Source: Heterodontus francisci (taxonomy: Eukaryota). Taken from it: a stretch of 64,000 nucleotides of DNA. Positions within the stretch are counted from its first letter, which is position 1. Every line of letters starts with the position of its first letter. Positions 988 to 54,485 of this stretch are shown piece by piece. The stretch spans positions 1-64,000 of the forward strand of contig NW_027140807.1 of assembly GCF_036365525.1 (NCBI RefSeq). The letters are read 5' to 3'. Position numbers and translations under genes: made by a program. Below the pieces are notes generated by a model. It searched no databases. It was not told the DNA's origin and was given only the letters and a program-made list of their open reading frames with translations.

Positions 988-1141
988 CACTATACTAAAC
1001 AACAGTACCAAAACACACCTTTGGATAGACAGATACACCGACAGAAAAGTAGCTACGTAGATCGATAAACATAAAGATGGATACACAGAAAATACATTGT
1101 GGATGATGGAACAATAGATGTTTATATAGATGCTAACGTAC

Positions 1142-3845: not shown

Positions 3846-4366
3846 CACATCAGCAAATCATGTTACATCAACCCGGTCGAAAACGGTTTGCTACAAGTGG
3901 GCTGCTCAGCGTTTAGGAAGCACTGGTCAAGACAATCAGGAGGCACAAAGCAGCTTACAGCCAATGAAGCAGTTTGTTTAGGAAGTGGTCACCACAGGGA
4001 GACAGAGCAACTGATATTGTACCAAGGAAGTCCCATCAAACAGCAGTGAGATTAATGAGCAGATCATTGTGATGTTGGTTGAGGGATCAATATTGGTCCC
4101 AAGACACCGGGGTGGTGTTTCAGGGGTTGAAGAGTAACCAGTTTTCACACAAATAACACAGTTATTCTCTTTTCCAGAGGAATGCTCTAGGTTATAAAGC
4201 TGGACCATTCTGAGGCATCTACAAGATTGAAAGGGCCCAGCTCCCGCCATAATCCAGAGGAGATGTTTATTCGTTTACTCTGTTGCCACTGCTCTTCTGC
4301 TGATCTTCCTCGAGGTGTGTAGAGCGAGGTTTTTGTACGGAGGCTGCATTGGATTCTATCACAGTG

Positions 4367-4379
4367 TCCCCCCTGTCCC
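4367..4379 (-). CDS. TRBD: TCR beta D segment D2 (GGGACAGGGGGGA), open in all three frames (GTGG/GQGG/DRG)
   Basis: 5' 12-RSS (heptamer 4380-4386, nonamer 4399-4407) and 3' 23-RSS (heptamer 4360-4366, perfect nonamer 4328-4336); core matches the conserved vertebrate Dbeta GGGACAGGGGG. Confidence 0.97.
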
Positions 4380-4544
4380 CACGGTGATAGACACTCATAC
4401 AAAAAAGAACGCGAATTTTGCAAGGCCCTGCCTCTGAAAAGACTCCCGAGGGCTTCACTTGGTGAAGTCAGTTGAGATTGAGCTGCTGAAAGTTTTTTAG
4501 TCCTTTGGACCAGAATTAAAGGCCGTTCATTCCGTCTCAAAACT

Positions 4545-7965: not shown

Positions 7966-7989
7966 CCTGTAACTTCTATTTAAACATAG

Positions 7990-9769: not shown

Positions 9770-9827
9770 CCAGGACAGTTAATTTAGTGCCATCTCCAAA
9801 ATACACAGGTTGAATATCCCCTGCTCC
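9770..9827 (-). CDS. TRBJ: TCR beta J segment J1.6 (type F), GAGDIQPVYFGDGTKLTVL
   Basis: FGDG motif; GTAAGT donor; RSS CACATCA 9828-9834, 12 bp, ACAAAAACA 9847-9855. Confidence 0.92.
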
Positions 9828-10171
9828 CACATCATCACCTCACATCACAAAAACATTCCCCAACTCTCTTCTGGAAGAAAGGAAACTCACTGCCCCATTC
9901 CTTAATATTTGATAGTGGCCTCTGGTTAACGCAAGCTAACCGTAAGTTAATGTAAACTGGTGGACTAACCAGGCAGTTTGCAGTTATAACTCTCAGAATT
10001 CCCAAGACTGTCTGCCCCGTCCACATGTGTACCTGTTAGTCAGTTATCCACCGTGACAGTCCTGACAATAGGAGATTTTCTGCAAGTCCCTCACAATTAT
10101 TCATTCAATCCTTCTTGCAAGATGTTTACAGGTGACCCTTGCTTCATTGAAAACAAAGAAACTGAACTCAC

Positions 10172-10228
10172 CCAAAATCGTCAACGTGGACCCTTCCCCA
10201 AAATGTAGCAGGTTGGTATACCCGCCCG
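10172..10228 (-). CDS. TRBJ: TCR beta J segment J1.5 (type E), GGYTNLLHFGEGSTLTIL
   Basis: FGEG motif; GTGAGT donor; RSS CACTGCA 10229-10235, 12 bp, ACCAAAATA 10248-10256. Confidence 0.9.
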
Positions 10229-10439
10229 CACTGCACTGAACAACAATACCAAAATACAACGATGGGTAGACAGATATATGGACAGACAAATAGATAAGTA
10301 GATGGACAAACAGACAGACAGATGGATCCACAGACCAACAAATAGATAGGTCCATTGATAGATAAAGAAATAGAAAGACTTACAGATGAAAAGAGATGTT
10401 TACATATATAAATATCTACATGTGCAAACATAATCTTAC

Positions 10440-10489
10440 CTAAAACAGTGAGTTTAGTACCAGCTCCGAAATAATAAATCTCACCAGAG
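10440..10489 (-). CDS. TRBJ: TCR beta J segment J1.4 (type D), SGEIYYFGAGTKLTVL
   Basis: FGAG motif; GTAAGA donor; RSS CACAATG 10490-10496, 12 bp, ATTAAAACA 10509-10517. Confidence 0.92.
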
Positions 10490-11998
10490 CACAATGATAA
10501 ACTCATGTATTAAAACATTACCTGTCTTTGAGTCCTTTCCCGAAGTAGCCCCTCATAATAAGGGAGAACCGACAAGTATAAGGAAATTTTGTCCAAAGGA
10601 ACATAGCAACTGGGGAACAGGAGTAGACCATTCAGCCCTTCGTGCTTATTCCGACATTTAATTAGATTATTAATCATTTGTACCTTAACGCCTTCGACCT
10701 GCCTTCTTGGTTCCATAACCTTTAGCATCTTTGCCGATCAAAAAATAATCAACCACACATTTGAAATTTTCAATTGACCCCCTCAGCTTTCTGTGGGAGA
10801 GATTTCTGGATTCCACGGGGCATTTTGTAAACAAGTCCTTCTTGACATCATTCCTGAATGGTCTAGCTATCAGTTTAAGGTTTTGCTCTCTTGTTCTGGA
10901 CCCATCACACCAGAGGAAATATCAGATCCTATCATTATCTTAAACACATCAATTGGATCACTCCTGAATCTCCAATTCTCAATTTACTGTAACCCTACTT
11001 TAAACAACACATCGTCATAAATTAAACTCTTTTGATTCCGGTATTATCCTGGTGAATGAGGAAAGGTCATGAGGCCCTTGACACCTCATTGTCCACTGGA
11101 TATGGACAGCTCACCAGTTCGATTAGTAACTTGAAAATAGTGTGTCTCAAAATGGTTTCATCCATTGCTGCTCGAGGCCAAGAGGGAATATTTCGAATTG
11201 CAGAGAATTTACAACACACAAACAGGCCATTCAGCCCATCTGCTCCATACCAGTGTTTACACTCCACTTGAGACTCCTCTCATCCCCTTCATTTAATCCA
11301 ATTTTTTTTATCCAATCTACTTTTTTAAACCCACTCCTTGTGGTAGTGAGTTCCACATTCGCACCACTGTCTGGGTAAAGAAATTTCTCCTGAATTCCCT
11401 ACTGAATTTATTACTGACTATCTGACATTTATGCTCTCCCCGTTCTGGTCTCCCCACAAGTGGAAAAAACTTCGGTGTGTCTACCTTATCGAAACCCCTT
11501 TCAAAATCGTACAGACCTCTACCAGGACACCCCTCAAACTTCACTGCTCTCGAGAAAGGAGTTCCAGTCTGTCCGACCTTCCCCAATAGTTATAACTTCC
11601 CAGTTTGGGCAGCACAGCTGTTAATCTGTTCTGATTTACCTTATCCAGAGCCTCTACATCATTTCTTTGATAATATGCAGACCAGAACTGCATACTAAAC
11701 GATGCAATTGGACATTTTTCGTTCTATCTCTGTGTCCTCATATTCTTCTCTCACAAGTGCAATCATTCTATTTGTATCTACATCGCTGTTTGTTCTGTTT
11801 CTTTTAGAGACCCTCCCTTCTGTATCCACTCAAACCCCTTCCCTACAGTGAAACAAATTCGGCAGTTGTAGATCTCCCCTTGTAACCTGAACAGACGAAA
11901 GAAATTCACCAAATTTCTATATTTTCACTCTTTCGACCACCCCACGTGAATTCCCAAATTGAATCAACTTTTCCAGTATTAGGAATGCATTCACTCAC

Positions 11999-12048
11999 CT
12001 AAAACAACCAGTTTGGTCCCATCTCCGAAATATGCTTCGCTATTGGAG
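11999..12048 (-). CDS. TRBJ: TCR beta J segment J1.3 (type C), SNSEAYFGDGTKLVVL
   Basis: FGDG motif; GTGAGT donor; RSS CACACTG 12049-12055, 13-bp spacer, ACAAAATCC 12069-12077. Confidence 0.92.
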
Positions 12049-12661
12049 CACACTGATATGGGGCTGTCACAAAATCCCCCTCAATCCCCTTAGATTGTTA
12101 AGTCTGTTCCATTGAAGTTCCTATTATGTCAATGACCGTAAAGGTCGTAGGAACATGGGGACAGGAGGTGGCCATTCAGCCCTTCGAGCCTGTTCCACCA
12201 TTCAATCAGATCAGGGTTGATCTGAATCTTAACTCCCGCCTTGGTTCTGTAACCTTCGATACGCAATACTCTATCAATCTTGGATTTGAATTTATCAATT
12301 GATCCCCAGTCTCAGCAGATTGTTTTTTATGGTGTGGGGGTGGAATCCATCATTTCCACTACCCTTTGTGTGAAGAAGTGCTTCCTGATATCATCCCTGA
12401 AAGGCAATAATTTAAACTATTCTGAGCTCCCCCCAACCTGAGGAAGCAGTTTCTCTTTCTATCTATCCAACACCTCAAAACACCTCCATTATATCAGACC
12501 TTAATGTTCTAGATTCGAGGGATTATCAGCTTCGTCTGAGTAACCATTCCTCATGAGTTAACCCTTTTATGTATCTAATATCTGAACATTACTCCTGGTG
12601 ATTTTTTAACTAGACATAGAGTCTGATCGATAGGAGGAACAGAAATACACAGTCGCCTTAC

Positions 12662-12709
12662 CCAACACTGTCAACTTGGTCCCATCGCCGAAGTAAGCTA
12701 TCTCTGCTG
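12662..12709 (-). CDS. TRBJ: TCR beta J segment J1.2 (type B), AEIAYFGDGTKLTVL
   Basis: FGDG motif; GTAAGG donor; RSS CACGATG 12710-12716, 12 bp, TCATGAACA. Confidence 0.9.
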
Positions 12710-12950
12710 CACGATGCTCGAAACTCAGTCATGAACAGACCCGGGAGATGTTCCCCTTGGAACTGAACGAGACAGGACGGGGTGGTTTACAGGCGAGGGT
12801 CATATTGGACTGGTCTTTGCAAATCAGAAAGAAGGGCCATTGTCATCAGCCTGACTTTTTAAACTGCCCGTGGAGGGTTGGGGGGAACAAGCTTGGAATA
12901 CAAACAGCTGGACATGAAGGGAGTGGGAAAAAAATGTCCCTTTTTCTTAC

Positions 12951-13000
12951 CTAACACCGTCAGTTTGGTGCCGGCCCCGAAGTTGAGTGGTGTGTTGTAG
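12951..13000 (-). CDS. TRBJ: TCR beta J segment J1.1 (type A), YNTPLNFGAGTKLTVL
   Basis: FGAG motif; GTAAGA donor; RSS CACGTCA 13001-13007, 12 bp, ACATCAACC 13020-13028. Confidence 0.9.
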
Positions 13001-13524
13001 CACGTCAGCAGATCACGTTACATCAACCCAGTCGGAAACTGATTGCTAAAAGTGACCTGCTCAGCATTTAGGAAGCACTGGTCAAGACAATCAGGACGCA
13101 CAAAGCAGCTTACAGCCAATGAAGCAGTTTGTTCAGGAAGTGGTCACACAGGGAGACACAGCAACTGATATTGTAACAAGAAAGTCCCATCAAACAATAG
13201 TGAGATTAATGAGCAGATCATTGTTTGTGATGTTGGTTGAGGGATCAATATTGGTCCCTGGACACCAGGGTGGGGTTTAAGGGTTAAAGAGTAACCAGTT
13301 TCCACACAAATGACACACTGCTGTTCTCTTTTCCACAGGAATGTTCTAGGTTATAAGGCTGGACCATTCTGAGACATCTTTAAGATGAAAAGGGCCCAGT
13401 TCCCGCCATAATCCTGGGCCATGTTGACTCGTTTACTCTGTTGTCACTGCTCTTCTGCTGATCCTCCACCAGGTGTGTTGAGCGAGGTTTTTGTACGGAG
13501 GTTGCATTGGATTTTATCACCGTG

Positions 13525-13537
13525 TCCCTGTTGTCCC
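13525..13537 (-). CDS. TRBD: TCR beta D segment D1 (GGGACAACAGGGA), open in all three frames (GTTG/GQQG/DNR)
   Basis: 5' 12-RSS (heptamer 13538-13544, nonamer 13557-13565) and 3' 23-RSS (heptamer 13518-13524, perfect nonamer 13486-13494); GGGACA Dbeta core. Confidence 0.97.
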
Positions 13538-13679
13538 CACAGTGATAGACACTCATACAAAAAAGAGGAACGCAAAACTTCCAAGTCCCCACCGCTTAAA
13601 CGGCTCCCGAGGACTTCACCTCGTGACGGCAGCTGAGACTGAGGTGCTGAAATTTAGTTAGAGCTACGGAGCACAATTA

Positions 13680-14785
13680 GAGGCCATTCAGCCCCTCTCA
13701 AACCTGATTGTCTGGAACAGGAGGTGGACATTCAGCCGCTCTACAGTCTGTTACACGGGAACAGGAGGTGGACATTCAGCCCCTCTCCAGTCTGTTACAC
13801 AGGAACAGGAGGAGGATATTCAGCCCCTGTCCAGTCTGTTACACGGGAACAGGAGGAGGACATTCAGCCCCTCTCGAGTCTGTTACACAGGAACAGGAGG
13901 AGGACATTCAGCCCCTCTCCAGTCTTTTACTCAGAAACAGGAGGAGGACATTCAGCCCCTCTCCAGTCTGTTACACAGGAACAGGAGGAGGACATTCAGC
14001 CCCTCTCGAGTCTGTTACACAGGAACAGGAGGAGGACATTCAGCCCCTCTCCAGTCTTTTACTCAGAAACAGGAGGAGGACAATCAGCCCCTATCCAGTC
14101 TGTTACACAGGAACTGGAGGAGGAAATTCAGCCCCTCTCCAGTCTGTTACACAGGAACAGGTGGTGGACATTCAGTCCCTCTCCAGTCTGCTGCACAGGA
14201 ACAGGAGGAGGACAATCAGCCCCTCACGAGCCTGCTACACAGGAACAGCAGGAGGACATGCAGCCACTCTCCAGTCTGTTACGCAGGAACAGGAGGTGGA
14301 CATTCCGCCCCTCTCGAGCCTGTTACACAGGAACAGGAGGAGGACATTCAGCCCCTCTCGAGCCTGTTACACAGGGACAGGAGGAGGACATTCAGCCCCT
14401 CTCCAGTCTGTTGCACAGGAACAGGAGGAGGACATTCCGCCCCTCTCGAGCCTGTTACACAGGAACAGTAGGAGGACATTCAGCCCCTCTCCAGTCTGTA
14501 ATACAGGAACAGGAGGAGGACATTCAGGCCCTCTCCAGTCTGTTACACAGGGACAGGAGGAGGGCATTCAACCCCTCTAGAGCTTGTTACACAGAAACAG
14601 GAGGAGGACATTTTGCCCCTCTAGAACATGTTACGCAGAAACAGGAGGAGGACATTCATCCCCTTCTCAAATCTGTTACACAAGAACAGGAGGAGGACAT
14701 TCAGCCCCTCTGGAGCATGTTACACAGAAACAGGAGGAGGCCTTCAGCCCCTCTTGAACCTGTTACACCGGAACAGGAGGAGGCC
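13680..14785. repeat. 44-bp minisatellite, at least ~25 copies, running into an assembly gap
   Basis: Unit aggaacaggaggaggacattcagcccctctccagtctgttacac; it produces the spurious 44-aa-periodic ORFs; resembles the reverse complement of CR1 3' tails in this window. Confidence 0.92.
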
Positions 14786-15074
14786 NNNNNNNNNNNNNNN
14801 NNNNNNNNNNNNNNNNNNNNNNNNNNNNNNNNNNNNNNNNNNNNNNNNNNNNNNNNNNNNNNNNNNNNNNNNNNNNNNNNNNNNNNNNNNNNNNNNNNNN
14901 NNNNNNNNNNNNNNNNNNNNNNNNNNNNNNNNNNNNNNNNNNNNNNNNNNNNNNNNNNNNNNNNNNNNNNNNNNNNNNNNNNNNNNNNNNNNNNNNNNNN
15001 NNNNNNNNNNNNNNNNNNNNNNNNNNNNNNNNNNNNNNNNNNNNNNNNNNNNNNNNNNNNNNNNNNNNNNNNNN
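14786..15074. other. Assembly gap
   Basis: Run of N. Confidence 1.
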
Positions 15075-15619
15075 CTTCCCTCTGTTGCACCCCTTATCCC
15101 AATCCTTGCCTCCGTTCCTTACGCTTTTCTTTACCTGCATTGTCCCTCTACAACCTGCAGGATCTCAGGAAGCACCGGCTACGGGTCCACAAACAGAACG
15201 CACTTAATGTATATAGTAAATCGTGCACACTGCAATCTCTTCACCTATCACTCAGAGAGTCCCAGGTCTGCCAAACCAGGGGTGTGCAAGTTCCCAGGTG
15301 TTCTGTTGCGGTGCTGTTATCATTTCAGCTGATCTGTCTGCACACCAACACCCATCGCCCATGCACCTGGTCCTCAACTCTAACATTGAGGGTTTTACTC
15401 TTTTGTTCGGTTCTTATGCTGCTTGCTCTTCAGATGAAGGTAACGCGAGGTTCTGGGTTGAAGAGGTTCAAAACATTTCTAACAATAAAGGCGGACGTTG
15501 AATGAAGGATTGGGATATGGACACAAAACATTTTCAAAGAAAGGCGATTATGGAGTCATCAAAGTAAGTACATTTCCCTTTGTCCTTTTGCAAACATGGC
15601 ACAAAGTAGGAATCTATTG

Positions 15620-16190
15620 CTGCTTCTAAATGTTCACTGGACATTATAGAGCGAGGAGAAGTCATGTTAAACTTGTATAGAATCTAGCTTAGACCACAGT
15701 TAGAGCACTTTTCCCAGTTCTGGTATTCATTTTAAAGAGATATAGAGATACAGGAGAAGGGGCAAAAAAGTAATGACAAGGATGATATCAGAACTGAGAG
15801 GTTATAATTATCAGGAAGGGCTGTAAAGAGAAGGCTGAAGGGTGATCTGATGGATGGATTTAAGATTATGAAAGAGTTTTTGATAGGGTAGACGTGCAAA
15901 AGATTTGTGGGGGACTCAGGAACTCCGAACCATCAATAGAAAGATAGTCACTAATAAATAAAATCGGGAATTCAGGAGAAACTTCTTTACCCAGAGAGTG
16001 GGAGGATGTAGGGAGTGGGATAAGGTGAATAGCGGAGATGTATTCAAGAGGGAATCTGGATAAACAAATGGGGTGGGGGAGATTTGGAAGGATCTACTGA
16101 TGGGGTGAGATGAAGACGGGAGCGAGGAAGCTCGTGCGGAGGATGAACGCCAGCATGAATGTGTTGGGCCGAATGGCCTGTTTCTTTGCG
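15620..16190 (+). mobile_element. Degenerate CR1 LINE 3' fragment
   Basis: Decayed VMLNLYRxLVRPQLE coding remnant and gggccgaatggcctgtt tail. Confidence 0.65.
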
Positions 16191-16279
16191 ATTTGCCTCA
16201 GGACACAGTCCAAGGGATAAAGTGTGTCTCACCTGAGAAGGCAGACAAGCCGCTGGTTTAAAATCTCAGGTGCAAATTC

Positions 16280-17318
16280 AGCACTCCCTCTGTACTGACC
16301 CTCTGAGAGTGCAGCACTCCCACAGTACTGACCCTCGGACAGTGCAGCACTTCCTCAGTACTGACCCTCTGACAGTGCAGCACTCCCTCAGTACTGACCC
16401 TCGGACAGTGCAGCACTTCCTCAGTACTGACCCTCTGACAGTGCAGCACTCCCTCAGTACTGACCCTCTGACAGTGCAGCACTCCCTCAGTTCGGACACT
16501 CAGACAGTGCAGCACTCCCTCAGTACTGACCCACTGACAGTGCAGCACTCCCTCAGTACTGACCATCTGAGAGTGCAGCACTCCCTCAGTACTGCCCCTC
16601 TGACAGTGCAACACTCTCTCAGTACTGACACTCTGACAGTGCAGCACTCCCTCAGTACTGACACTCTGACAGAGCAGCACTCCCTCAGTACTGACCCTCT
16701 GACAGTGCTGCAATCCCTCAGTACAGACACTCTGACATGCAGCACTCCCTCAGTACAGACACTCTGCCAGTGCAGTGCTCCCTCAGTACTGACCCTCTGA
16801 CAGTGCAGCATTACCTCAGTACTGACCCTCTGACAGTGCAGCACTCCCTCAGTACTGACCCTCTGACAGTGCAGCACTCCCTCAGTTCGGACACTCAGAC
16901 AGTGCAGCACTCCCTCAGTACTGCCCCACTGACAGTGCAACACTCTCTCAGTACTGACACTCTGACAGTGCAGCACTCCCTCAGTACTGACACTCTGACA
17001 GAGCAGCACTCCCTCAGTACTGACCCTCTGACAGTGCTGCAATCCCTCAGTACAGACACTCTGACATGCAGCACTCCCTCAGTACAGACACTCTGCCAGT
17101 GCAGCACTCCCTCAGTACTGACACTCTGACATGCAGCACTCCCTCAGTACTGACCCTCGGGCAGTGCAGCACTCCCTCAGTGCTGACCATCTGATGGTGC
17201 GGCACTCCCTCAGTACTGACACTCCAACAGTGCAGCACTCCCTCAGTACTGACCCTCTGACAGTGCAGCACTCCCTCAGTACTGACCCTCCAACAATGCA
17301 GCACTCCCTCAGTACTGA
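16280..17318. repeat. 33-bp minisatellite (~31 copies) derived from a SINE core
   Basis: Unit cagtgcagcactccctcagtactgaccctctga; related sequence occurs once, reversed, in the SINE at 18328-18640. Confidence 0.92.
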
Positions 17319-17351
17319 ATTAACGAAATTGGCTGCATTGACGATCGATGG

Positions 17352-17365
17352 GCGGTAGGTGGCGC
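17352..17365 (+). promoter_or_regulatory. Candidate CTCF site facing the V array
   Basis: tggGCGGTAGGTGGCGCta versus consensus tggCCASYAGRKGGCRSta. Confidence 0.55.
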
Positions 17366-18327
17366 TATTGCTCCGCTAATCCTAATCGCTTCTTCATTTC
17401 ACAGCCGCTCCTTCCTCTGACAGCGACCTCAGGTCTGCCATTCCCTCCCAAAGCCCCTCCACATCTCTCTCCTCCAAATCTTCCCAGCTTTGGCCCACAC
17501 CTCCTAACAATTTCTGCTGTAACTCTGTGTCAAATAGTTGGCAGATTTACGCTATTCGGGCCGTTTATCTCGGGACGGTGAAGTCGCTATATAAATGCAA
17601 ACTGCAGCTGTTTAATTACACGCTCGTGCTGACCTGTGAACAGGAGGTTTGGGACTTGGAACATGTCTTCCAGAAACGGACTCTGTCGGCAGTTTCGCTT
17701 GACGTTTCTTCCACGGGGGGAGACGAATTAAACTCTGCATTCACAGAAAATTTGATTCGAATTTGTCATGACCGGGATTTCGCGTCCTGTTGCTATAGTT
17801 TTCAGCACTTGTATCTTGTCGCTTGATGTAACGTCCTCTTAAAATCTATCACCATCCTCCTCACGGTTCACAATACTGCAAAGTTTGCAAATGTGCCCTG
17901 CACACCCAAGTCTATGTTATTAATATCGATCAAGACAAGCAGTGGTCCCTGGAGAACCCCACTATATACCTTCCTTCAGACTGAACACCAACTGTTTACC
18001 ACTACTCTGTTCCATGTTGCTTTGTATCCATGTTGCTAATGCCCCTTTTATTGCATGGGCTTTATCTTTGCTGACAAGCCTGTTATGTAGTACTTTATCA
18101 AACGCTTTTTTTGAAGTTCATGTACACCACATCAACAGCATTACCCTCATTAACCCTCTCTGTTACCTCATCAAAAAATGTGTATCCGACTCTTGGTTTC
18201 CTGATTAGTCTACAGAGTGCTGGTTGTTTCAAAAGGCCATGCAGTATTCATCATCTCCACAGATGGGAGAACCTCAAAGCATCTTGTATGACTGACCACT
18301 TCCTCTGATGTGTCTTTATATATCAGA

Positions 18328-18640
18328 CGTGGTTTAGTGGGGAGCACCTCGGCACTGAGTCAAAGGTTTGTGGGTTTAAGTCCCCGGACCGAGATTTAAG
18401 CATAAAATCGAGGCTGACACCCCCAGTGCAGGACAGAGGAAGTGCTGCACCGTGTGGAGGTGTAGCACCGAGGTACTCTCTTTATTTTGGCTGAGATGTT
18501 AAAACGAGGTCCCGACTGCAGATGGGAAGGATCTCATAGCCACTATTTCGGAGAATAACAGGGGCATTCTCGAGGGTTATCTGGGGCGATAGACATCCCT
18601 AAACCAACTTTACTAAAACAGATTATCTGGTCATTCTCAG
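18328..18640 (+). mobile_element. tRNA-derived SINE with Deu-domain-like core
   Basis: A-box-like gtggtttagtgg and B-box-like gggtttaagtccc, then gctgacaccccagtgcag...gtgctgcac...tgagatgttaaaacgagg core. Confidence 0.65.
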
Positions 18641-18646
18641 TTTCCA

Positions 18647-18751
18647 CCAGGAGATGGCGCAGTACTCCGCAGATCTCGTAGCTGCAAATGGAATTCGAGC
18701 AGATGTCAGACAATGAATTTCCATTCAGCGAGTGATCGCGCCCTCTGGCGG
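18647..18751. promoter_or_regulatory. Cluster of candidate CTCF sites in the V-D interval
   Basis: + strand CCAGGAGATGGCGC 18647-18660, weaker + strand CGAGCAGATGTCAG 18696-18709, - strand CCGCCAGAGGGCGC 18738-18751. Confidence 0.6.
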
Positions 18752-19489
18752 CCGCAGAGGGAATACGATGAAGTCTGAATAATTTTCATCACCATTCACC
18801 ATTTGGATCATTCTTCTGGCGTTACCGAGTCGCAGCCGGAGTGTGATCAATGCTACCTACTTCCAGTGAGATGTAGTATTATTTATTGCCATGTGCAAAG
18901 ATGACCAGATGGTGACAAATGGAGTGAAACTCCCCCCCCTCCCCCACCCACCCCTCCACTAACACTATTGGATCTAAGATGCATCAGTTGGAATTCATTC
19001 CTGGTTATGTGCATTCACCTCACATTGGAATTTCGAGACAGGGTGCCGACTGGGAGTTTTATAACGCTGCTCGATCTTGGACCCTGCAAGTAAAGGGTTA
19101 CTATCTTGTTGGCACGTGGAAAAGACTTCTGATCTGCATCCCTGCAATTTTGCTTCAATAATTAGAGAGCACATTAGCTCAGGATCTCACTTTCGACTTC
19201 ACTCGCATAATGCAGGTTGGAAATGTGCACAGCATCTCGAATCCGTAAAGACTGGGGGAAATCTTAGCGCCGGGAGCCCATTAAAAGTCTTCCACTTAAT
19301 AAAAGCCAAGAAAAAGAAATGACGGCATGTTGTAGATTTCGGGAACTCCAGTCCAATCTGAAAATATCTGGGGCTGTAGCAAAAGTGGTCGAGCAACAGG
19401 GTGAGTAATTTCAATAGCAACATTCTTCTCATTATTGATACTGCAAGAGGGACTCGTGTATATGAACCAGAATAATTTTACATCAATGT

Positions 19490-20140
19490 ACAGCAAGGAA
19501 TTAGGAAGGCGAGTAACATGTTAGCTTTTATTATAAGGCGTTTGAAACATAAGAGTAAGAAAATTCTTCTGCAGCTAGTTAGGACTTTGGTAACAACACA
19601 CCTATAGTGTTGTATAGAGTGTTGCTTTCCTTATCTTCTGAAGCATGTATTTGCCTCAGAGGAGGTTGCAACGAAGGTTCACTCAATTGGTTCCTCGGAG
19701 GAGAAGGCTGCCCAATGAGGAGAAATTGAGTCGAATGGGCTGTTATTCTCTGGAAGAATCAGAGGTGATCCATTTGAAACGTACAAGATGATGAGAGGGT
19801 TTGACAGGGGACACACTGAGAGGCTGTTTCCCCCCTGGCTGGAGAACCTAGAAATAAGGGGTCGAAGCTTCAGGATAAGGGGTCGTCTATCGTACTTAGA
19901 TGAGGAGGAATGTCTTCACTCAGAGGGTTATGACTCTTTGGAATTCAGAGAGCTTTGGATTCTCAGTCATTGAAAATATTGAAGACATGAGATCCATAGA
20001 TTTTAGGCACCAAGGGAATCCAGGGATGTAGGAATATGGCGGGAAAGTGGAGTGAAGGTAGCAGATCCTCAAGATCTTCATTACGTGGAGGAGCAGACAC
20101 GGCGGGCCGAATGGCTTACTCCTGCTCCTATTTTCTAATG
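19490..20140 (+). mobile_element. Degenerate CR1 LINE 3' fragment
   Basis: Decayed IRKAxxMLAFI...LLQL...QRRFT motifs and the typical tail. Confidence 0.65.
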
Positions 20141-22758
20141 TTCTGATGTAAGTGGTTCCTGCGTGTTTGCAGTGTCAGGTCATTGTGTCATCACAGCACA
20201 TACGGTCTAAAATATTATCTTTCTCTTCTGGTCTATCCCGTGTTTCACTTGACCATGAAGTCTCGTCATGGCAAACCCTGAAGCCAGTTACGGGCCAACA
20301 GATCTTGATAAGGGAAGTTTGTCGATTTCAGTGCAATTTCCAGGCAATCGGAATGAATTATAATCAGAGCAGAGAAAGTTAAGGGACCCAGCGGAAGGTG
20401 GTGTTGGAAATCAGGAAGGGTTTTGATAAATTGAACAGGGAGAAGCTGTTTTCTGTGGCAGGAAGTTCGCTAACCAGGAAGGCGCTGATTTAGGGTCAGT
20501 GGTAAAAGAAGCAGAAGCGGGACGAGGAGAATGATTCTGACTGGGACGGGTATTAAAGATCTGGAACACATCGCCTGAAAGGGCAGTGGAATGGGATTCA
20601 GCTTTCAACAGGGAGTTGGATAGATCCTTGGAACAGAAGATTTCCAGGGCTAGGGCAAAAGGGCAGGAGAGTGGGACTAACTGGATAGATTTTTCACAAA
20701 AGCAAGCAGAGACGGGATGATCTCCTTTGTGTTGAATCTTTCTGTGATGCTAAAATGTGGACAGATCAGAAAGGAACAACTTGACATCATTGCCTTTATT
20801 TAAGAAAAGTAAAACTATTCTCCACCCTTTGGCATATGAAACGTGACAACAAAGATATTGGGAGTCTGTGAACCTTATCTGTTATCTCTATGGGTGCATT
20901 CTCACTGCAGACAGGGTTCCAGTCAAGCAAACCCTACTTATATGGCTGTGTTGGAGTAGTAACTGCCCTGGGACAAATTCCTCCCGGTACACCAGGGAAT
21001 TCTGTCAAGAGCAGGCTGGTTATCATCTGAACAGGTCAGTGTTGAAGAGGTTTAACATGACATGTGGAAGTATGTCAATGAGACACCGGTCATTCTTTAT
21101 TCAATAGGGGCCCTAAGACTGTGTTTGCCTCGTGGTATTAATCCATCCATATCCAGATTTGATAGATTTCCTTCAGTGAGGAACATTTTGGGATTAAGTT
21201 GAGACATGACATGTGACAAGAGCTGCCTGCTTGGGAGGAACAGGGACTTTGGGCCTGACATTTTGGTGCTTTCCACACCTCATGCCTGGGCCCTGTTGTA
21301 GATCAAGTAACCGCAATTGGTTTATTTCTGTTCTGTTACGGGATGAGGGCTGGCGAGGGCTACGTTTATTTCCAAGTCTAACCGCTCTTGAGCAGACTTC
21401 TTCTTGAATGCAACTGCGTGGCTGACTAGGCCCATTCCTCAGGGCAGTGAAGGGTGAACAGCACTGCTGCCGGGGTCTGGAGTCACTGAGAGTCCAGATT
21501 GGGTGAGGGAGGCAAAATCCCTTCCCTCAAGGATATCACTGAACCAGGTGGCTCTTTCCGCCAATCCAGCAGCTTTATGCTGAGCATCATTGCTGGAATA
21601 CCCGTCCTGGAACAGAACAACTACTGTTACAAAGGCTACCATCATCAACAACGACATTATTGGTCTACAAGGATACCAGAAGTTGAACGAGGTGTCCTGG
21701 TTTTTTTTTTGGCATCTAGCAAATCCTGCATTCCGAAGCCTGCCTCTTCAGAATGCAGCCTTCCATACCAGTGCCCTGTTTAGCTTAGTGCTGGAACCCA
21801 ACACAGTTTAATTCAGAGAGTACAGAGCTGAGAGATGCCAGATAAACCTTATTCTTCAGATTCACTGTGACACCAGTGACAGTCTCATTCAACTTGATGG
21901 ACCCTCCACCAGTTGGACCAAGTTTCAGCTGAAAGACCGGCCCCAGCGCCTGGGAGTTCCTGCTGCGCCTTCGTTAGACCAAAGTACGTGAATTGAATGC
22001 AGTTATGAGACAGTGCATTCCAGGAAGGTGGGGATTGCTCTACCGAGGGATATCGGAATATAATTTCTGAAAATGAGATGGATAAGTTAGCGGTTTGTCA
22101 ATAAAAAGATACTGATACGCAGATTAACCACAAGCATTATTCATGGTTGGCGCTGGACAGGTTGAGAGAGCAGTTAATAAAGCCTTCTTGTGTACTGTTC
22201 CAATTTTCTGATTCTGTGATTAGGAATATCGATGATAAGTGGCAGTAACTTGATTGCTAACCTGATGATCAAGGTTGGGTAAAATTTGTGATAAACACAA
22301 CAATGTTCAGTTTAAATGGTACAGGGTGATATTCTAAGATAATAAGATGTATCTATCCATCGGGACTTTGATAGCTCTATCTTTCAGCAGAACCAAGCCA
22401 TCCATTTATCACTTTGAGAGCTGCTTGCAAGCTGTAAGATACAGATGCAGACTCACACAGACAACACCAGCACAGACGAAGAGATTTTTCTTTTAACTTG
22501 TTGAGTTATTCTTATCAGGAATGCGATGCCTGAAAGGATGGAGCAAGCAGATTCAACAGTAACTTAGAAAGGAGATTGGGAAATATATTTGAACAGGAAA
22601 TATCTACACTCTGAAAGTTGATGGAAAACTCTGCAAAGTTTCATCAATGAACAGCTGTCTTTATGAACTCTGCTTACTTGAGTTTTCCTCTCGAACACTC
22701 ACAGTATAAGAGGGTGGTATGTTTTTGACCCAGCCCTGCACCTGTTTGAATCACTGTG

Positions 22759-23420
22759 ATCACTAGCAGCACAGTAATACACCGCCCTGTCAGTCTGATC
22801 CACCCTCAGTATTTTCAGGCTGCAGGTTTTAAGATCGGGTCTGGTGACCTTAAATCTCTCCTTGAAACCCTCTTCAGGGCTGGTATCAGAGGTGCCAATC
22901 GAGGTCACTATGAGCAGTAACCCTGCTCCGCTCTGCTGGCGATACCAGTACATGTAACTGTCGCTGGTGTCATTCTGGAAACAGTGCATTTCCACCGTTT
23001 TCCCCTCTGCGACCGTCAGCCGGTTCCCCCACTGGGTAACGAGAGCGCTCCTGGACCGGGCTGTGGAGGAACATGAGAAACAGATCGGGTCAAAGAGAAC
23101 AGACACAATAAGGAGAGAGAGAGAGATTTAATGGTAAAGCTCACGATGCACACCACAGTCGATCAGCTCGCTGCCGCCCCAGCACAGGGGTCATGTGCTG
23201 ATTCCCAGAATCGCTGGGCACAACTGCAGCGGTGCTAAATAACGACACTTGTCCTCAACAGCAAAACCAAACCAGTAAATCTCTAACTGATTGGAGCCCT
23301 TCGATATCAACAGGAATTGTGTCTCAAAGCTGATTAACTGGGGCCTGAATTTCCCTCCAAGTAGAAGCAGTAACCCTTGAGCAGCAGAAACAGTAGATGG
23401 AGGTAAACAGTACACAGCAT
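22759..23420 (-). CDS. TRBV: TCR beta V gene V1 (family A): leader 23375-23420 (MLCTVYLHLLFLLLK), V exon 22759-23060
   Basis: Ig V domain (MHC...WYRQ...AVYYCAASD); 23-RSS heptamer 22752-22758, nonamer 22720-22728; AG acceptor 23061-23062; leader donor GTTACT is weak. Confidence 0.92.
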
Positions 23421-23486
23421 GATGCAGGAATGTGAACCCTTCTTTCAACCTTCCAGCTTCGTCCCGCTCTCACACACTGCAGTCCT

Positions 23487-23532
23487 ATTGGTGCACAGCC
23501 TGCTTTTGTGATGCAGTGCGGAAGTGACGTCA
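23487..23532 (-). promoter_or_regulatory. Vbeta promoter: CCAAT box (23487-23491) and CRE/decamer AGTGACGTCA (23523-23532)
   Basis: About 70 and 105 bp upstream of the V1 ATG; paralogous AGTGACGTTA at 28186-28195 upstream of V2; matches the known Vbeta promoter decamer/CRE. Confidence 0.7.
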
Positions 23533-23696
23533 TTGCAAGGGCAACGAATAGAACCTTCCTTGTGTATCCAACAAAGCAGATGTTTCTTTCCGATGTGTGG
23601 GTGTGAAAAATAGAATTACACAGGATTGACTTGCAAAGTCCCATCTATTGCAGGGTTTGGGAATATGCATAACGATTGGAATGGTTGACATATATA

Positions 23697-24937
23697 CCAA
23701 CTTGATTGAATTTTTCGTGGCGGTGACTAGATGTATAGATAAGGGTCAAGCAGTTGATATAGTCTACATGGCTTTTGATAAAGTCCCGCATGGGAGATTG
23801 GTTAGGAAGGTCAGAGCCCATGGGATCCAGGGCAGTTTGGGAAAATGGATTCAAAATTGGTTTCTTCGCAGGAGGCAGAGGGTGATGGTCGAGGGTTTTT
23901 TTTCTGAGTGGAATCCTGTGAACAGTGGTGTACCACAGGGATCAGTGCTGGGACCCTTGCTGTTTGTGGTGTACATTAATGAATGAAGTGTGAATATAGG
24001 AGGTATGTTACGTAAGTTCGCAGATGACACAAAAATTGGTGGTGTCGCAAACAGTGAGGAGGAAAGCCTTAGATTACAGGACAATATAGATGGGCTGGTA
24101 GGATGGGCAGAGCAGTGGCAAATGGAGTTTAATCCTGGGAATTGTGAGGTGATGCATTTTGGGAGGACTAACAAGGCAAGGGAATATCCAATGGATGGTA
24201 GGACCCGAGGAAGTACAGGGTGTCAGAGGGATCTTGGTGTACTTGTCCATAGATCACTGAAGGCAGCAGCACAGGTAGATAAGGTGGTTAGGAAGGTACA
24301 TGCGATACTTGCCTTTATCAACCGAGGTATAGAATATAAGAACAGGGAGGTTATGATGGAGCTGTATAAAACACTAGTTAGGCCACATCTGGAGTAATGT
24401 GTACAGTTCTGGGCACCACACTATAGGAAGGATGTGATTGCACTGGAGAGGGTGCAGAGGAGATTCACCAGGATGTTGCCTGGGATGGAGCATTTCAGCT
24501 GTGAAGAGAGACTGAAAACACTATGGTCGTTTTCCTCAGAGCAGAGCATTCTGAGGGGTTACATTATTGTCTTTTTTGAAATTATGCGGGGTCCTGATAG
24601 GTTAGTTAGGAAGACATTTATCCCGTTCTTGGAGGGGTCAATAACCAGGTGGCATAGATTTAAGGTAAGAAGCAGGAGGTTTAGAGGGGATTTCATGAAA
24701 AAATGCTTCACACAGAGGGTGGTTGGAATCTAGAACACAGTGCCTGAAGAGGTGGGAGAGGCAGGAACCCTCACAACATTTCAGAAGTATTTAGATGAGA
24801 ACTTGTAACGCCATAGCATACAACGCTACGGGCCACGTGCTGCAATATTTGATTAATATAGTCAGGTCCTTGATGGCCGGCACAGACAGGATGGGCAGAA
24901 TGGCCTGCTTCTGTGCTGTGTAACTGTATGACTCTAG
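23697..24937 (+). mobile_element. 5'-truncated CR1 LINE (reverse transcriptase, with stops)
   Basis: TNLIEFF, AFDKVPH, SGVPQGSVLGP, KFADDTK and QRRFTRMLPG motifs; interrupts sequence that is contiguous upstream of V2. Confidence 0.92.
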
Positions 24938-25679
24938 ATGTGCTTTATAGAGAGATATCTCACCTGAAGTGATTGTAGAAACTCCTGGGGGAGACCTCAT
25001 TTCACCGCTCGGTATCTCAGGAGCGCAGTGAGCAGACAGTCAAACAAGGCGTCCCCTTATAAAGATTTCCAATCACAGGACAGCACTTTTAGTAATGCAG
25101 AAACTGGGACTGTTCTCCGGAGAGCAGAGATGGTTAGGAGGAGATGTGATAGTGAGGTTCAAAATCAGGAAGGGTTTAGACAGAGTAAATAAGGAGAAAC
25201 TGTTTGCAGTGGCAGAAGGGTCGGTAAAGAGAGGACAAGAATTAAAGGATTCACAAAAGAGGAAGAGGGAAGATTAGGAGTTTTTTCTTTAACTTGGTGA
25301 GTTATTCTGATCAGGAATGCACTGCCTGAAAGGATGGAGGAAGCAGATTCAACAGTCACTTTCAAAAGAGATTGGGATGTATATTTGAACAGGAAATATC
25401 TGCCACCCATTGAGGATAGAGTGTAGAGTGGGATGAAACAAGTAGATCTTTCAAAATGTTGGCACAGGAACGATGGGCCGAATAGCCTCTACTGTTCTGT
25501 ATGATTTTCAACTTCTCTGGAGATTATTTCCTCTGCTTTGGAAAGTACTGAAATGAGTCTTTGGATATTGAACTGTCACTCAGGGAGCACTTAGAATCTA
25601 TTGGAATATCCCACACTCTGCTGGGTTTGGAAAACTTCTCAAAGCTCCATCCATGAACGGTTAACTTTATGATCTCTCC

Positions 25680-26795
25680 TGGAAAGTATAAACAGGATTG
25701 GACCAAGTCAGCATGGGTTTGCGAAAGGGAAATCATGCTGAACAAATCTACTGCAGTTGTTTGAGGACTTAACACGTAGAATAGATAAGGGAGAACCAGT
25801 GGATCTGGTGTATTTGGATTTTCAAAAAGCTTTTAATAAGGTCCCACATAAGAGGTAAGCGTGCAAAATTAAAGCACATGGGATTGGGGGCAATATACTG
25901 GCATGGATTGAAAATTGGTTGACAGACATGAAACAGAGAGTAGGAATAAACGGGTCTTTTTTCCAGGAAGCAGACAGTGACCAGTGGGATATCACAGGGA
26001 TCAGTGCTTGGGCCCCAGCTATTCACAATATATATTAATGACTTGGGTGAGGGAACTAAATGTAACATTTCCAAGTTTGCAGATGACACAAAGCTCGGGG
26101 TAATGTGAGCTGTGAGGAGGATGCAAAAAGACTCCAATAAGATTTGGACAAGTTGGGTGAGTGGGCAAATGCATGGTAGATGCAGTATAATGTGGATAAA
26201 TGTGAGGTTATCCACTTTGGCTGTAAAAACAGAAAGGCAAATGATTATCTGAATGGTGATCGACTGGGAAAGGGGAGGTTCAGTGAGACCTGGGGATCCT
26301 TGTACCCCAGTTGCTGAAAGCAAGCATTCAGGTGCAGAAAGCAATTAGGAAGGCGAATGGTATGTTGGCCTTCGTTGCAGGAGGATTTGAGTACAGGAGC
26401 AAGGATTTCTTACTGCAGTTATACAGAGCCTTGGTGAGATCAGATCTGGAGTATTGTGTGCAGTTTTGGTCTCATTATCTGAGAAAGGATGTTCTTGCCA
26501 TGGAGGGAGTACAAAGAAGATTTACTAGGCTGATTCCTGGGATGGCAGGATTGACGTATGAGGAGAGATTGGGCCGACTAGGCCTATCTTAACTAGAGTT
26601 TAAAAGAATGAGAGGGAATCTCGTAGAAACCTCTAACATTCTAACAGGACTATACAGGCTAGAAGCAGGAAGGATGTTCCCGATGGCTGGGGAGTCCAGA
26701 ACCAGGGGTCACAGTCTCAGAATACAGGGTATGTCATTTACAGCAGAGATGAGGAGAAATGTCCACACTCAGAGGGTGGTGAACCTGTGGAATTC
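25680..26795 (+). mobile_element. Degenerate CR1 LINE (reverse transcriptase region)
   Basis: [34 protein letters not shown] and QRRFTRLIPG motifs with frameshifts. Confidence 0.9.
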
Positions 26796-26914
26796 TCCTG
26801 CTCTTATTTTCTGTGTTTCCATGTTTCCCTACTTGACTTTTCCTCTCTAACAGCTCACAGTATAAGAGGGTGGTATGTTTTTGACCCAGCCCTGCACCTG
26901 TTTGAATCACTGTG

Positions 26915-28081
26915 ATCACTAGCAGCACAGTAATACACCGCCCTGTCAGTCTGATCCACCCTCATTATTTTCAGGCTGCAGGATTTAAAATCGGGTCTGG
27001 TGACTTTAAATCTCTCCTTGAAACCCTCTTCAGGCCTGGGATCAGATGTACCAATCGAGTTCACTATGAGCTGTAACCCTGCTCCGCTCTGCTGGCGATA
27101 CCAGTACATGTAACTCTCGTTGGTGTCATTCTGGAAACAGTGCATTTCCGCAGTTGTCCCCTCTGCGACCATCAACCGGTTCCCCCACTGAGTAAGGAGG
27201 GCACTCCTGGACCGGGCTGTGGAGGAACATGAGAAACAGATCGGATCAAACATTTAAATAGGCACAGTAAGGACAGAGAGATACTTAATGTTTAAAATTG
27301 CGATGCACGCCACAGTCCATCAGTTCACTGAACAAACATACAGACCGGTCATCTCTGGAGGCTCAGTATCCGCTGGGCACACCTGCAGATGCGCCCAAAT
27401 CGCTGCACTTGGCCTCTGTGCCCATTGCTGGGGAGGACAAAAGTCAGCCAGCTTGCCCACTTTCCCCGCCGCCAACACTGGCTCTATTGCAATGTCCTTG
27501 CACCGTCCGCCAGTCCAGCGACACTGACTGGGTCAGCTCATTGACATTGTGGGCAATGTGCCCATAATCAGCTGCCTAGGACTGGCCAACCTTCAGGTAA
27601 TGGGCAGGGCGAACAAGGCAAGTTACATTTATTATTGAACAGAGTAAGAAACAATTAGGACCCAAAATAAAGGCATTTAAAGAGCCAGAGATGATACAGC
27701 TCAGCAGGAGGCCCTTCGGCCAATCGCCCCTGTGCTAGCTTTTTGAAGAACCTTTCCAAATATTCCAACTCCCCTGCTCTTTACCCAGAGTCCTGCAAAT
27801 ATTGCCCATTCAGGAATTTATCCAGGTCTCTCTTTTTTTTTAAAGAAAAGGTTGCAATTGCATCCACCCGGCTTTCAGACAATGTATTCCAGAGCAGAAC
27901 AATTCACTGCTTCAAACAGTGAAGAATCCTCCAAGTGATCGAACTGTTTGAAGACTTTCAGCAACAACGAGAATTGATGTTGTCCAGAAGCAGATTAATC
28001 CGGTCCCGGATTTCCCTACAAGTAGGAGCAGTAACCTGGGAGCAACAGAAACAGTAGATGGAGGTAAACAGTACACAGCAT
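26915..28081 (-). CDS. TRBV: TCR beta V gene V2 (family A): leader 28036-28081 (MLCTVYLHLLFLLLP), V exon 26915-27216
   Basis: Paralogue of V1, open frame to YYCAASD; 23-RSS heptamer 26908-26914, nonamer 26876-26884. Confidence 0.92.
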
Positions 28082-32190: not shown

Positions 32191-33670
32191 GATAGCAATG
32201 TAGTTCACTGTTAACTGCCTCTGAGATGGGCTAGCAAGTCATTCAGTTCAGGGCAATTCGGCATAGGTAATGAATTCTGACCTTGTCAGTGATGTGCACA
32301 TCCCTGAATATGTGCTTCTTTATATAAAATTCCTCCTTCTCCATTTTTCTTTCACTGTTTTCTGACTTTGCTTCCCCTCTTTACTTCCTTCAGATCATCT
32401 GTTTTAGTATATCACAAGTGTTGGTCAAACCAGTCACTATGAACGAGCAGACTTGGGGAAATCCAATTGTCTATTTTGTGTGGAATGGTTATGATTTTAA
32501 TCTGTTTCAGAGTTAGTGGAATTGACTATTAGGTGGATGGGTCAAGTCACTGCTGCATTGCTCGCTCAGTCTCTCCAGAAGCAAGTGGGACTCAGGCTGC
32601 GGTGGAGCTCCATCCCCATCTGGTGGCTGTAATGTGTAACTACAGGCACCTGAGATTTGCAAAGTGCAATTGATAAAATAGGCATTATGAAGACATGCTT
32701 TGAAATTGCTCCGTCTTCCCATTTTTTATCCATTGCTTCAGCTGGTGACGCTAGTGACATCGAATTAGAAGGAAATTGCAGCACAGATTCAGGCTATTCG
32801 GCCCGATGGCCCCACGTTCCAGACTAGCCTGGGGCAGATGGTGGTGTAGTTGTCATGTCACTGAGCTGGTGTACCAGAGGCGGGGGTGAATCTCCAGGGG
32901 ACATGCGTTAGAATCCCACCAGGTCAGATGGTGGAATTTAAATTCAATTAATGAATAAATGCAATTATTTCATCAGAAAATCTGCAATTGAAAACTAGTC
33001 TCAGTTAAGGTGTCCTGACACCCAGCTGGCTCACTCATGTCTTTTCGGGAAGGAAATCATCCGTCCAAACCCGCTCTGAAAACCTCAACATACTGAGTTT
33101 CACCTCCTCAATGAACAGACCTGATTAATACAGCCCCTCCACCAGCGCAGTGAGGATATCACAACATGTCAGTGTGAAGCCTTCTGTTCTGAAAACTGTC
33201 TCTCACTTGATCACATGAAGTGAGCACCAGATCTCCCGTTATTCCACCTGGAAACAGGGAGCACGGGAGTGGGGGGCGGGGGGAATGTTACTTTAGACTT
33301 GGCACGATAGATGTGGGAGTTGTGCTAAAGTCACGATGGAAATTCAGGCTCTCTCCTAGTTTCCTACAAACACCTGGGCCAATGTAATTGCAAAATAGAA
33401 CCTGGAAATCTACAAACTGGCATCTGGGTGCAAATATTTCAAGGTTGGAATGATATAAATGTCACTTAATGCCCCCTAAACAATCATATTAAAGGCTCAT
33501 CTACGGGATATCAAATCATTGAGTTTTTTTTTCGCATTGCCGGAATATATTGTGTGAAATAGGTGAGAAGTGAAAAATTTCAGAAGCAGCCAAGTTGACC
33601 TGTGGAGCTGCTGTGGGGAAAGCTCACTCTGTCTGAGCATGTTCTCGGCAGCGGCTGCAGTGGAGTAACA

Positions 33671-42130: not shown

Positions 42131-42520
42131 AAATAATTATTTTAAAACTATAAATGAACAGAAGCTGCTTCTTTCGGCAGAAGGCAACCAGGAGACATTG
42201 ATTAAATGTAACTGGCAGATGAATAAGTGGGGGGAGGGGGGAGATGTGATGATTTGTTTAAGCAGCGAGTTGTTATGATGTGGCTAGCACTGTCTGAAAG
42301 GGTGTTGGAAGCACCTTGAACATGAACATTCAAAAGGCAATGGATTGCACACGTGAATGGAATCAATGTGCATGGCTATGGGGAAGTAGCAGGGGGGAAG
42401 AGCATAAACTGGACAGTTCTTTCAAATAAGCCAGTACGGGGGAGATGGGCCGAATGGTCTCCTTCTGTTCTGTTATCCAAGATGATTCCATGAACTGGTT
42501 GCAGAAAATGAGCAGTCAGT

Positions 42521-43008
42521 CTACTGCTGCCCCCTGCCGGTGGAAGATGAGCACTGAGATTCAATCTACTGCTGCCCCCTGCCGGTGGAAGATGAGCACT
42601 GAGATTCAATCTACTACTGCCCCCTGCCGGTGGAAGATGAGCACTGAGATTCAATCAACTGCTGCTCCCTGCCGGTGGAGGATGAGCACTGAGATTCAAT
42701 CTACTGCTGCCTCCTGCCGGTGGAAGTTGAGCACTGAGATTCAATCCACTGCTGCCCCCTGCAGGGGGAAGATGAGCACTGAGATTCAATCTACTGCTGC
42801 CCCCTGCCAGTGGATGATGAGCACTGAGATTCAATCTACTGCTGCCCCCTGCCGGTGGAAGATGATAACTGAGATTCAATCTACTGCTGCCCCTCTGCCG
42901 TTGGAAGATGATAACTGAGATTCAATCTACTGCTGCCCCCTGCTGGTGGAAAATGAGCATTGAGATACAATCTGCTGCTGCCCCCTGCCGGTGGAAGATG
43001 AGCACTGA
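42521..43008 (-). repeat. 45-bp tandem array (11 copies), each carrying a CTCF-like motif, immediately 3' of the V5 RSS
   Basis: Unit ctactgctgccccctgccggtggaagatgagcactgagattcaat; minus strand reads CCGGCAGGGGGCAG; copy 10 is CCAGCAGGGGGCAG (42933-42946). Confidence 0.9.
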
Positions 43009-53840: not shown

Positions 53841-54485
53841 CCATCCTTATTTATTTATAACCCAGAAACGCAATGAGCACCAATATAGTGACAGAGCCCC
53901 AAGAACCTAAACCATCCAGCATCTGCGGTATCTTGTGTTCAGTTCACCAGACTGTAACCGGGATGTATTTCTATAATTATCAGGAGAGGTTCATAGACAA
54001 GTTTCAAAGTCCCTATTGAAACATCATCAATAATCTGATACTTATCACGGTCCTACACCGCCCTCTGCTGTCCCTTTGGATAAAGACAACACAGTCGGTG
54101 AATAAAACACAACAGTGTCTGTCTGCCTGCCAGCTATCTATCGACCTATCTCCCTAGCTATCTGATCTTCACTTCACACATTAAACCCTTTCATAATCTT
54201 TCTAAGAACTATGAATGTTCAGCCTTCAGACTTCTCCTTTCTGGAGCAAAGATGTTCAAACTATCTTTGTTCCGATATCATTCCTGTCAAGTCTATTTCA
54301 CAATTCCCCTGTGCTTCTATATCTAACCTCTCACTTTCTGTTTAAATCCGCCCTGTCTTCTTGTGAAAAACACTTTTCCAATGCCAAAAACAACCAACAG
54401 GACGCAGCACAGCCTGGTTTTATCTGAAACAGGTGTTTCCTGCTGCCTTTGGGGTTTTTGTTGAACTGCTCCATCTCTCACTGTG

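Follow-up and report, generated by a model that had tools for sequence, protein, structure and literature searches.

In the literature that we found, the steering of V(D)J recombination by CTCF and cohesin is known from mammals, and a search of the open literature, with subscription papers outside its range, turned up nothing on CTCF sites in the antigen receptor loci of sharks. The question raised here is whether the stretch between the V segments and D1 of a horn shark (Heterodontus francisci) TCR-beta locus carries an element of this kind. The locus offers a natural comparison, being compact, with no trypsinogen spacer seen and with what appear to be several copies. A sequence-only reading had described the stretch as containing an IGCR1-like cluster of CTCF motifs; IGCR1 blocks RAG scanning, enforces D–J before V–DJ joining and restrains proximal V genes.

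Layout of the TCR-beta locus

On its minus strand, the window, by which we mean the whole 64,000-nt stretch of DNA that was analysed, carries a TCR-beta locus of the horn shark, with 13 V segments followed by a 9.2-kb V–D interval and then by D1–J–D2–J. The 13 V exons, whose ends lie between 22759 and 60431, are associated with 23-RSS-type heptamers and form a visible array of about 41 kb; three of them have in-frame stops. Twelve canonical J motifs are found, seven behind D1 and five behind D2. No C exon was seen in the 64-kb window, C-beta and the enhancer being located outside it. The elements needed for what follows are these:

22720..23060, minus strand: last (D-proximal) TCR-beta V exon with 23-RSS, assigned from its V-set domain, its identity to AAA61563.1 and its RSS
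13486..13565, minus strand: D1 (13525–13537) with 5′ 12-RSS and 3′ 23-RSS
4328..4407, minus strand: D2 (4367–4379) with 5′ 12-RSS and 3′ 23-RSS
14786..15074, no strand: 289-N gap between the motif cluster and D1, which could hide a site

Over 89 residues, the last V agrees at every position (100% identity) with AAA61563.1, a TCR homolog from Heterodontus francisci, the J of which matches the window at 12047–11994 before the entry runs on into a C domain. As the matching entry carries J and C, this V is rearranged and expressed. The last V and D1 are both placed as the sequence-only reading had them, with the cluster between them, and the V–D interval proper extends from 13566 to 22719 (9,154 bp), including the 289-N gap and two tandem arrays. 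A trypsinogen-like block was not seen in 13566–22719, as judged from the ORF listing and from Pfam on five ORFs rather than from a dedicated search.

Several further features of the locus were recorded. The D–J cassette (1–15369) is duplicated with no C between the copies (D1–J–D2–J), and the D flanks are about 80% alike, 13401–13853 pairing with 4242–4692 and 15077–15369 with 4834–5130; the second of these pairs is a candidate D promoter. A 44-bp tandem array of 25 copies (13680–14783) lies directly 5′ of D1, and three copies occupy the matching place before D2. The stretch before D2 that corresponds to the 289-N gap contains no CTCF motif. J-like segments at 9072–8980 and 6053–5994 have non-canonical motifs and were missed by the FGxG scan, and CpG is densest in the window at 3301–3700, inside the J2 cluster. 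On the V side, the proximal-V leader exon is present in two copies (28864–28908 and 28037–28081) upstream of the V at 26915, one of them seemingly lacking a V exon of its own. In the 23-RSS (54447–54485) of the pseudogene V at 54486, the spacer is shortened, and the V at 49915 and 58945 likewise carry stops.

CTCF core matches in the V–D interval

The window was scored with an MA0139.1-like mammalian CTCF core matrix, and the results were cross-checked with the consensus CTCF motifs (Homer1, Homer2 and EMBL_M1) printed in Table 3 of PMC5859386. The following features were defined in the interval:

17349..17367, plus strand: V-facing CTCF core match, 16.7 bits, p 1.1e-6, four mismatches to Homer1 and Homer2
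17334..17342, plus strand: partial upstream ZF9-11 motif of the 17349 site, 6/9 including the first four bases, at -18
18644..18662, plus strand: V-facing CTCF core match just past the end of a SINE copy, 16.7 bits (p about 1e-6)
18736..18754, minus strand: D-facing CTCF core match, 20.4 bits, p 7.6e-8, the best EMBL_M1 match
18741..18761, no strand: inverted repeat with arms of 7 bp and a spacer of 7 bp, in overlap with the D-facing motif, read from the sequence

The strong minus-strand, D-facing motif reported at 18738–18751 is borne out by the core match at 18736, the strongest non-array site of the window, which lies 4.0 kb 3′ of the last V RSS. Two of the three plus-strand motifs named with it, at 17352–17365 and 18647–18660, were recovered (16.7 bits each), and the third, at 18696–18709, scores 1.0 bit (p 1.3e-3) and was rejected as noise; one contig (depth 27.8) shows a base inserted within it. 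The inverted repeat CCCTCTG-GCGGCCG-CAGAGGG is present at 18741–18761 just as described. Its plus-strand arm scores at most 0.7 bit, so that the site is one-directional, and a two-way CTCF reading of the repeat was discarded. Outside a 45-bp array in the V region, the only other site of at least 16 bits is that at 54056 on the minus strand. The printed consensus motifs place 17349 and 18736 at or near the top of the window; 18644 is weaker by this measure, with five mismatches to Homer2 and no place among the ten Homer1 hits.

The 17349 site is 3.8 kb from the D1 12-RSS, across a span that includes the 289-N gap and two tandem arrays, and the 18644 site is 5.1 kb from D1. Read from the V side, the order is D-facing (18736), V-facing (18644), V-facing (17349). 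The opposite-facing 18644 and 18736 sites are 73 bp apart and convergent, unlike the divergent IGCR1 pair, a distinction already drawn in the sequence-only reading for the 18.65/18.74 kb pair.

The sequence and spacing of the upstream ZF9-11 motif were taken from PMC12885311, bioRxiv 2023.12.05.569896 and the Homer motif. This upstream motif is optional, accompanying 13–15% of CTCF sites (PMC12885311). The candidate at 17334..17342 stands at the longer of the two usual core–upstream spacings; in the background, 6/9 is reached at 3.9% and TGCA at either offset occurs at 1.2%. Its first bases may overlap what we take to be a SINE-like word. At 18644 (4/9) and 18736 (5/9), the upstream motif is absent. 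Differences listed from aligned reads and contigs (four of the eight runs, swamped by repeats) include none inside the three motifs, which is not evidence of conservation, and capture and RAD runs barely cover them. All eight runs listed are DNA libraries under a single species label, none of them ChIP, ATAC or RNA. In human Hox clusters, according to PMC5504073, CTCF binding is poorly predicted by motif scanning alone.

Comparison with null models reveals that the three-motif cluster in the V–D interval is well above chance. In dinucleotide shuffles (n = 2000) of the interval less its arrays and Ns (6,719 bases), the mean number of sites of at least 16 bits is 0.028 against three observed, and none of the 2000 shuffles reaches three; at 12 bits, eight do. 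Local shuffles reach the observed level in 0/5000 cases at 16 bits and 1/5000 at 12 bits. A whole-window scan statistic (three sites in 1.45 kb), which allows for the choice of the region by eye, gives 0/300 shuffles at 16 bits and 2/300 at 12 bits, and not one of 1000 column-permuted matrices yields such a cluster at 16 bits.

Motif polarity and mammalian counterparts

Outside the V–D interval, the following matches were recorded:

42516..43008, minus strand: tandem array of a 45-bp unit, close on the 3′ side of the V RSS at 43029, with 10 D-facing CTCF matches of 10.6–22.4 bits
33669..33687, minus strand: D-facing V-associated site with a paralog at 38233–38251; 13.8 and 13.7 bits, both with an upstream motif of 8/9
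32611..32629, minus strand: D-facing V-associated site, 13.4 bits, upstream motif 7/9
54056..54074, minus strand: D-facing site of 18.2 bits, some 370 bp 3′ of a V RSS

All 16 CTCF matches of at least 12 bits in the V region face D (the tandem array gives 10 at 8 bits), and the only plus-strand matches of at least 12 bits in the 64 kb are those at 17349 and 18644. With the arrays set aside, the V region has no plus-strand and seven minus-strand matches at 12 bits, against shuffle means of 0.99 and 0.80, respectively. These seven represent five independent paralog families, one of them within a V exon (P 0.018, or 0.008 if the 45-bp array is counted as a sixth family). At 8 bits, 29 of 36 matches are D-facing and seven are opposite, and we count these seven against the boundary reading developed below. 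The claim that every V-associated motif converges with the V-facing sites is correct from 12 bits upwards (16/16); with a bias of 29/36 at 8 bits, the word 'every' goes too far. In the scan with orientation and shuffle comparison proposed as a check, motif density (0/2000 and 0/300) and polarity (P 0.018) both differ from those of shuffled sequence. Correctly spaced upstream motifs at 17349, 32611, 33669 and 38233 provide independent support.

A D-facing match of at least 8 bits lies within 1.5 kb 3′ of the RSS in 11 of the 13 V, and a V-facing match does so in one of 13. The last V has no D-facing motif within 1.5 kb 3′ of its RSS, the best score being 4.1 bits. None of eight tiled windows of the D–J region reaches 8 bits, and between D1 and 17340 the best minus-strand score is 4.8 bits, with 289 N unseen.

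The two D-proximal V (22720–27214) are the only ones of the 13 without such a D-facing match (8 bits, within 1.5 kb 3′ of the RSS). The 45-bp array looks like a tandem amplification of an RSS-adjacent CTCF site, and the V at 45348 and 60431, paralogs of the V with this array, have one weaker unit each. Members of the 54056 family also occur at 47845, 49598, 58508 and 63300 (8.5–12.0 bits). A motif family about 400 bp 3′ of V RSSs was considered as leader exons and rejected for want of an ORF. Plus-strand matches at 23387, 28048 and 28875 were dropped as sites, as they lie in V leader sequence and are taken to be coding coincidences.

This V-region polarity is that of mouse Tcrb and Igh. According to bioRxiv 10.1101/2024.10.13.618029, 18 V-region CBEs of mouse Tcrb converge on 5′PC together with CBE1 and CBE3; 5′PC is 27 kb and CBE1 3 kb before D1, with the D-facing CBE2 between CBE1 and D1, and CBE3 faces V from beyond the enhancer. 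These CBEs end loops and insulate the enhancer (bioRxiv 10.1101/2024.10.13.618029; PMC5859386), and CBE1 itself is weakly bound (PMC5859386). The horn shark resembles mouse Tcrb in that the locus is TCR-beta, two V-facing sites lie upstream of D1 (at 5.1 and 3.8 kb), the V-region sites of at least 12 bits all face D–J and one site in the group is D-facing. It differs in that its D-facing site lies nearer to V than either V-facing site does, with none found between 17349 and D1 (289 N unseen), whereas mouse CBE2 stands between CBE1 and D1, and in its 9-kb interval with no visible trypsinogen block. Binding and function have been shown for the mouse sites only.

The Igh IGCR1 is a divergent pair, with CBE1 toward V and CBE2 toward D, and its sites retain substantial activity when inverted (PMC10293834). 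Like IGCR1, the shark cluster has opposite-facing CTCF sites between the last V and the first D, and, as at Igh, V-domain sites are convergent to a V-facing site and some V have RSS-adjacent sites. Unlike IGCR1, the shark pair is convergent, 73 bp apart and joined by a third site, and the locus is TCR-beta, not Igh. As described in PMC5859386, Igk Cer consists of two tandem V-facing sites between V and J and Sis is a mixed pair, but Igk has no D and its V-region sites point both ways, whereas the shark V sites (at least 12 bits) point one way. The INT1–INT2 pair of Tcra/d is similar in comprising two intergenic sites, which shape V usage, but these face TEA (downstream), opposite to the shark tandem sites (PMC5859386). 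The label 'IGCR1-like' does not survive these comparisons, the locus being TCR-beta and the D-facing site being on the V side of both V-facing sites. Judged by motif position and orientation, the closest match of the shark cluster is Tcrb 5′PC/CBE1 and not IGCR1. It may nevertheless work like IGCR1.

The strength and clustering of the motifs, the polarity across the locus, the retained CpG and the recurrence in paralogs all favour a V–D CTCF anchor or insulator. The sequence-only reading is partly supported, shorn of the IGCR1 analogy and of one motif. On balance, we favour the view that the candidate cluster is a functional V/DJ chromatin boundary, both loop anchor and insulator, of the horn shark TCR-beta locus. 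CTCF would occupy 17349, 18644 and 18736 in shark thymocytes. The V-facing 17349 and 18644 sites would stop cohesin loops begun at the D-facing motifs beside V genes and would shield the closest V genes from the D–J enhancer; acting as mouse CBE1 and 5′PC do, they would separate the active D–J centre from V genes at a distance of just 4 kb. By extension from mouse work, convergent V and pre-D sites would anchor loops that bring V genes to the recombination centre. The 18736 site might serve the two proximal V, which have no 3′ site of their own, as a common one, or it might anchor a loop to a partner beyond C-beta. At a spacing of just 73 bp, the opposite sites would together hinder extrusion both ways despite the reversed order. 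Across an interval as short as 9 kb, the proximal V may do without a loop.

A rather unlikely alternative to this boundary is that CTCF does bind here, but at constitutive sites of the ordinary kind or at what is just the last V-type cassette, and that neither the order of V(D)J joining nor the usage of V is really affected. Such a reading gains from the compactness of the locus, with a V–D interval of 9.2 kb and a visible V array of about 41 kb, from the orientation of 18736, which is that of the V sites, and from the mouse, where V-RC looping does not require the DJ CBEs, whose effect is limited to usage (bioRxiv 10.1101/2024.10.13.618029). It does not account for a strict switch in polarity exactly in the V–D interval, for the motif-free D–J region or for the confinement of the window's only strong V-facing sites to the cluster.

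Repeats, CpG retention and paralogous copies

Most of the 1.4-kb motif region is repeat-derived, and the three motifs sit between the repeats. The surroundings comprise the following:

16279..17318, no strand: 33-bp tandem array that directly flanks the 17349 site toward D, its unit SINE-related and matching a SINE copy
17831..18195, no strand: high-copy repeat between motifs, with summed contig depth of 13,000–350,000 against 35–130 in unique bins
18340..18635, plus strand: degenerate SINE-type repeat copy, 5′ limit approximate, matching other copies in the window
18636..18860, no strand: CpG-retaining patch with two of the motifs (18644 and 18736), 14 CpG, o/e 0.99, flanks 0.35–0.62

The SINE-type copy at 18340..18635 presumably belongs to the DeuSINE/SacSINE1 family, and contig depth is very high within it at 18561–18633. 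Rfam gave one chance-level match only, in the 33-bp array. Hundreds of contigs and reads depart from the window at 18635–18639, continuing with a consensus that is unlike the 18644 motif; the motif was therefore not brought by the repeat. Self-search of the window revealed no second copy of the motif-bearing stretches, bar a weak alignment of 18619–18664 to the 45-bp array unit (74%, E 0.006), which we do not count since the shared motif at least partly explains the match. The CpG-rich patch noted in the sequence-only reading is confirmed, with an o/e of 0.99 at 18636–18860 against 0.38 for the window, and the ratio is 1.61 at 17319–17379. Pfam returned no family for five interval ORFs, and the patch is accordingly not read as a gene.

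Three H. francisci RefSeq gene models (P0001, P0003 and P0004), on separate contigs of 1.1–2.0 Mb, each join a V that is 85–95% identical to the window's two proximal V to C-beta by way of mis-predicted exons from the V–D interval. C-beta is nearly identical among the three. Contigs of the H. francisci assembly with TCR-beta V–D intervals include those of XP_067882236.1, XP_067882220.1 and XP_067884561.1. Aligned contigs fall into two sequence classes at 19108–19356, with 4/249 and 20/215 differences. These data point to several TCR-beta loci in the horn shark, the alternative being divergent haplotypes, and the mosaic identity (76–100%) along 15399–23061 suggests gene conversion.

P0001 reads through 18609–18773, and hence both motifs at 18.6–18.7 kb, with 54 of 55 residues identical, and P0004 covers the 18644 motif with 21 of 21 identical. 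In ten other V–D blocks, a tally that leaves out one gapped P0003 block (15399–15722), identity is 290/332 (Fisher p 0.0016; 0.018 for P0001 alone). Three of the ten comparison blocks likewise show 100% identity, and the blocks depend on one another; the motif identity could stem from conversion or recent duplication. Residue identity is, besides, a protein-level proxy, 18–19 of the 63 single-base changes per motif (about 30%) being silent. The 18644 and 18736 motifs are probably common to other horn shark TCR-beta copies, and their identity suggests selective constraint among the copies. The pseudo-ORF at 18636–18785, compared with 1.84 billion proteins, gave three matches, one of them P0001; the others, P0005 (which does not match the window) and P0006 (35%, E 0.009), are unrelated proteins and were dropped as homologs. 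The pseudo-ORF over 17349 gave no candidates. Protein searches, a weak instrument for non-coding DNA, found no homolog outside the horn shark.

It is distinctly unlikely, in our view, that 18636–18860 is instead a promoter or enhancer rich in CpG (driving germline transcripts, for instance) to which other factors bind, with CTCF matches that are partly incidental. The CpG o/e of about 1, the palindromic GC-rich core, the lack of upstream motifs at 18644 and 18736 and a near-identity with the paralog that extends over 165 bp, more than two motifs need, would all suit such an element, and 18644 also resembles what we take to be a YY1 site. Shuffles of the patch, however, reach 16 bits in 4/5000 cases and 20.4 bits in 0/5000, and 17349 and the polarity of the V region would be left unexplained. 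A promoter is in any case compatible with the boundary reading and does not exclude it.

That the motifs arose by chance or as a side effect of repeat fragments or junctions is very improbable, for, although two of the three sites abut repeats (the 33-bp array and the SINE end) in a 1.4-kb region that is mostly repeat-derived and was chosen because motifs were seen there, and although 18619–18664 resembles the 45-bp unit, every null was rejected, the whole-window scan statistic and permuted matrices included, the repeat consensus past 18639 is without the motif and no other motif-bearing copy emerged from the self-search.

If the cluster is a boundary, its wider meaning concerns the age of this form of control. 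A CTCF orientation code is present in the skate (PMC10115646), the CTCF protein of sharks has 11 fingers (PMC7471279) and the two-part CTCF motif is conserved to lamprey (PMC5504073). We raise, tentatively, the possibility that the TCR-beta CTCF polarity code descends from the jawed-vertebrate ancestor, loop-extrusion V(D)J joining then being as old as the receptors, that each of several horn shark loci has its own boundary copy and that the 45-bp array tunes V usage. The motif grammar of shark TCR-beta makes it testable whether such control goes back to the beginnings of adaptive immunity or evolved on two occasions. Other shark species have already been studied by CTCF ChIP (cited in PMC7471279), so that a first test may need existing data only.
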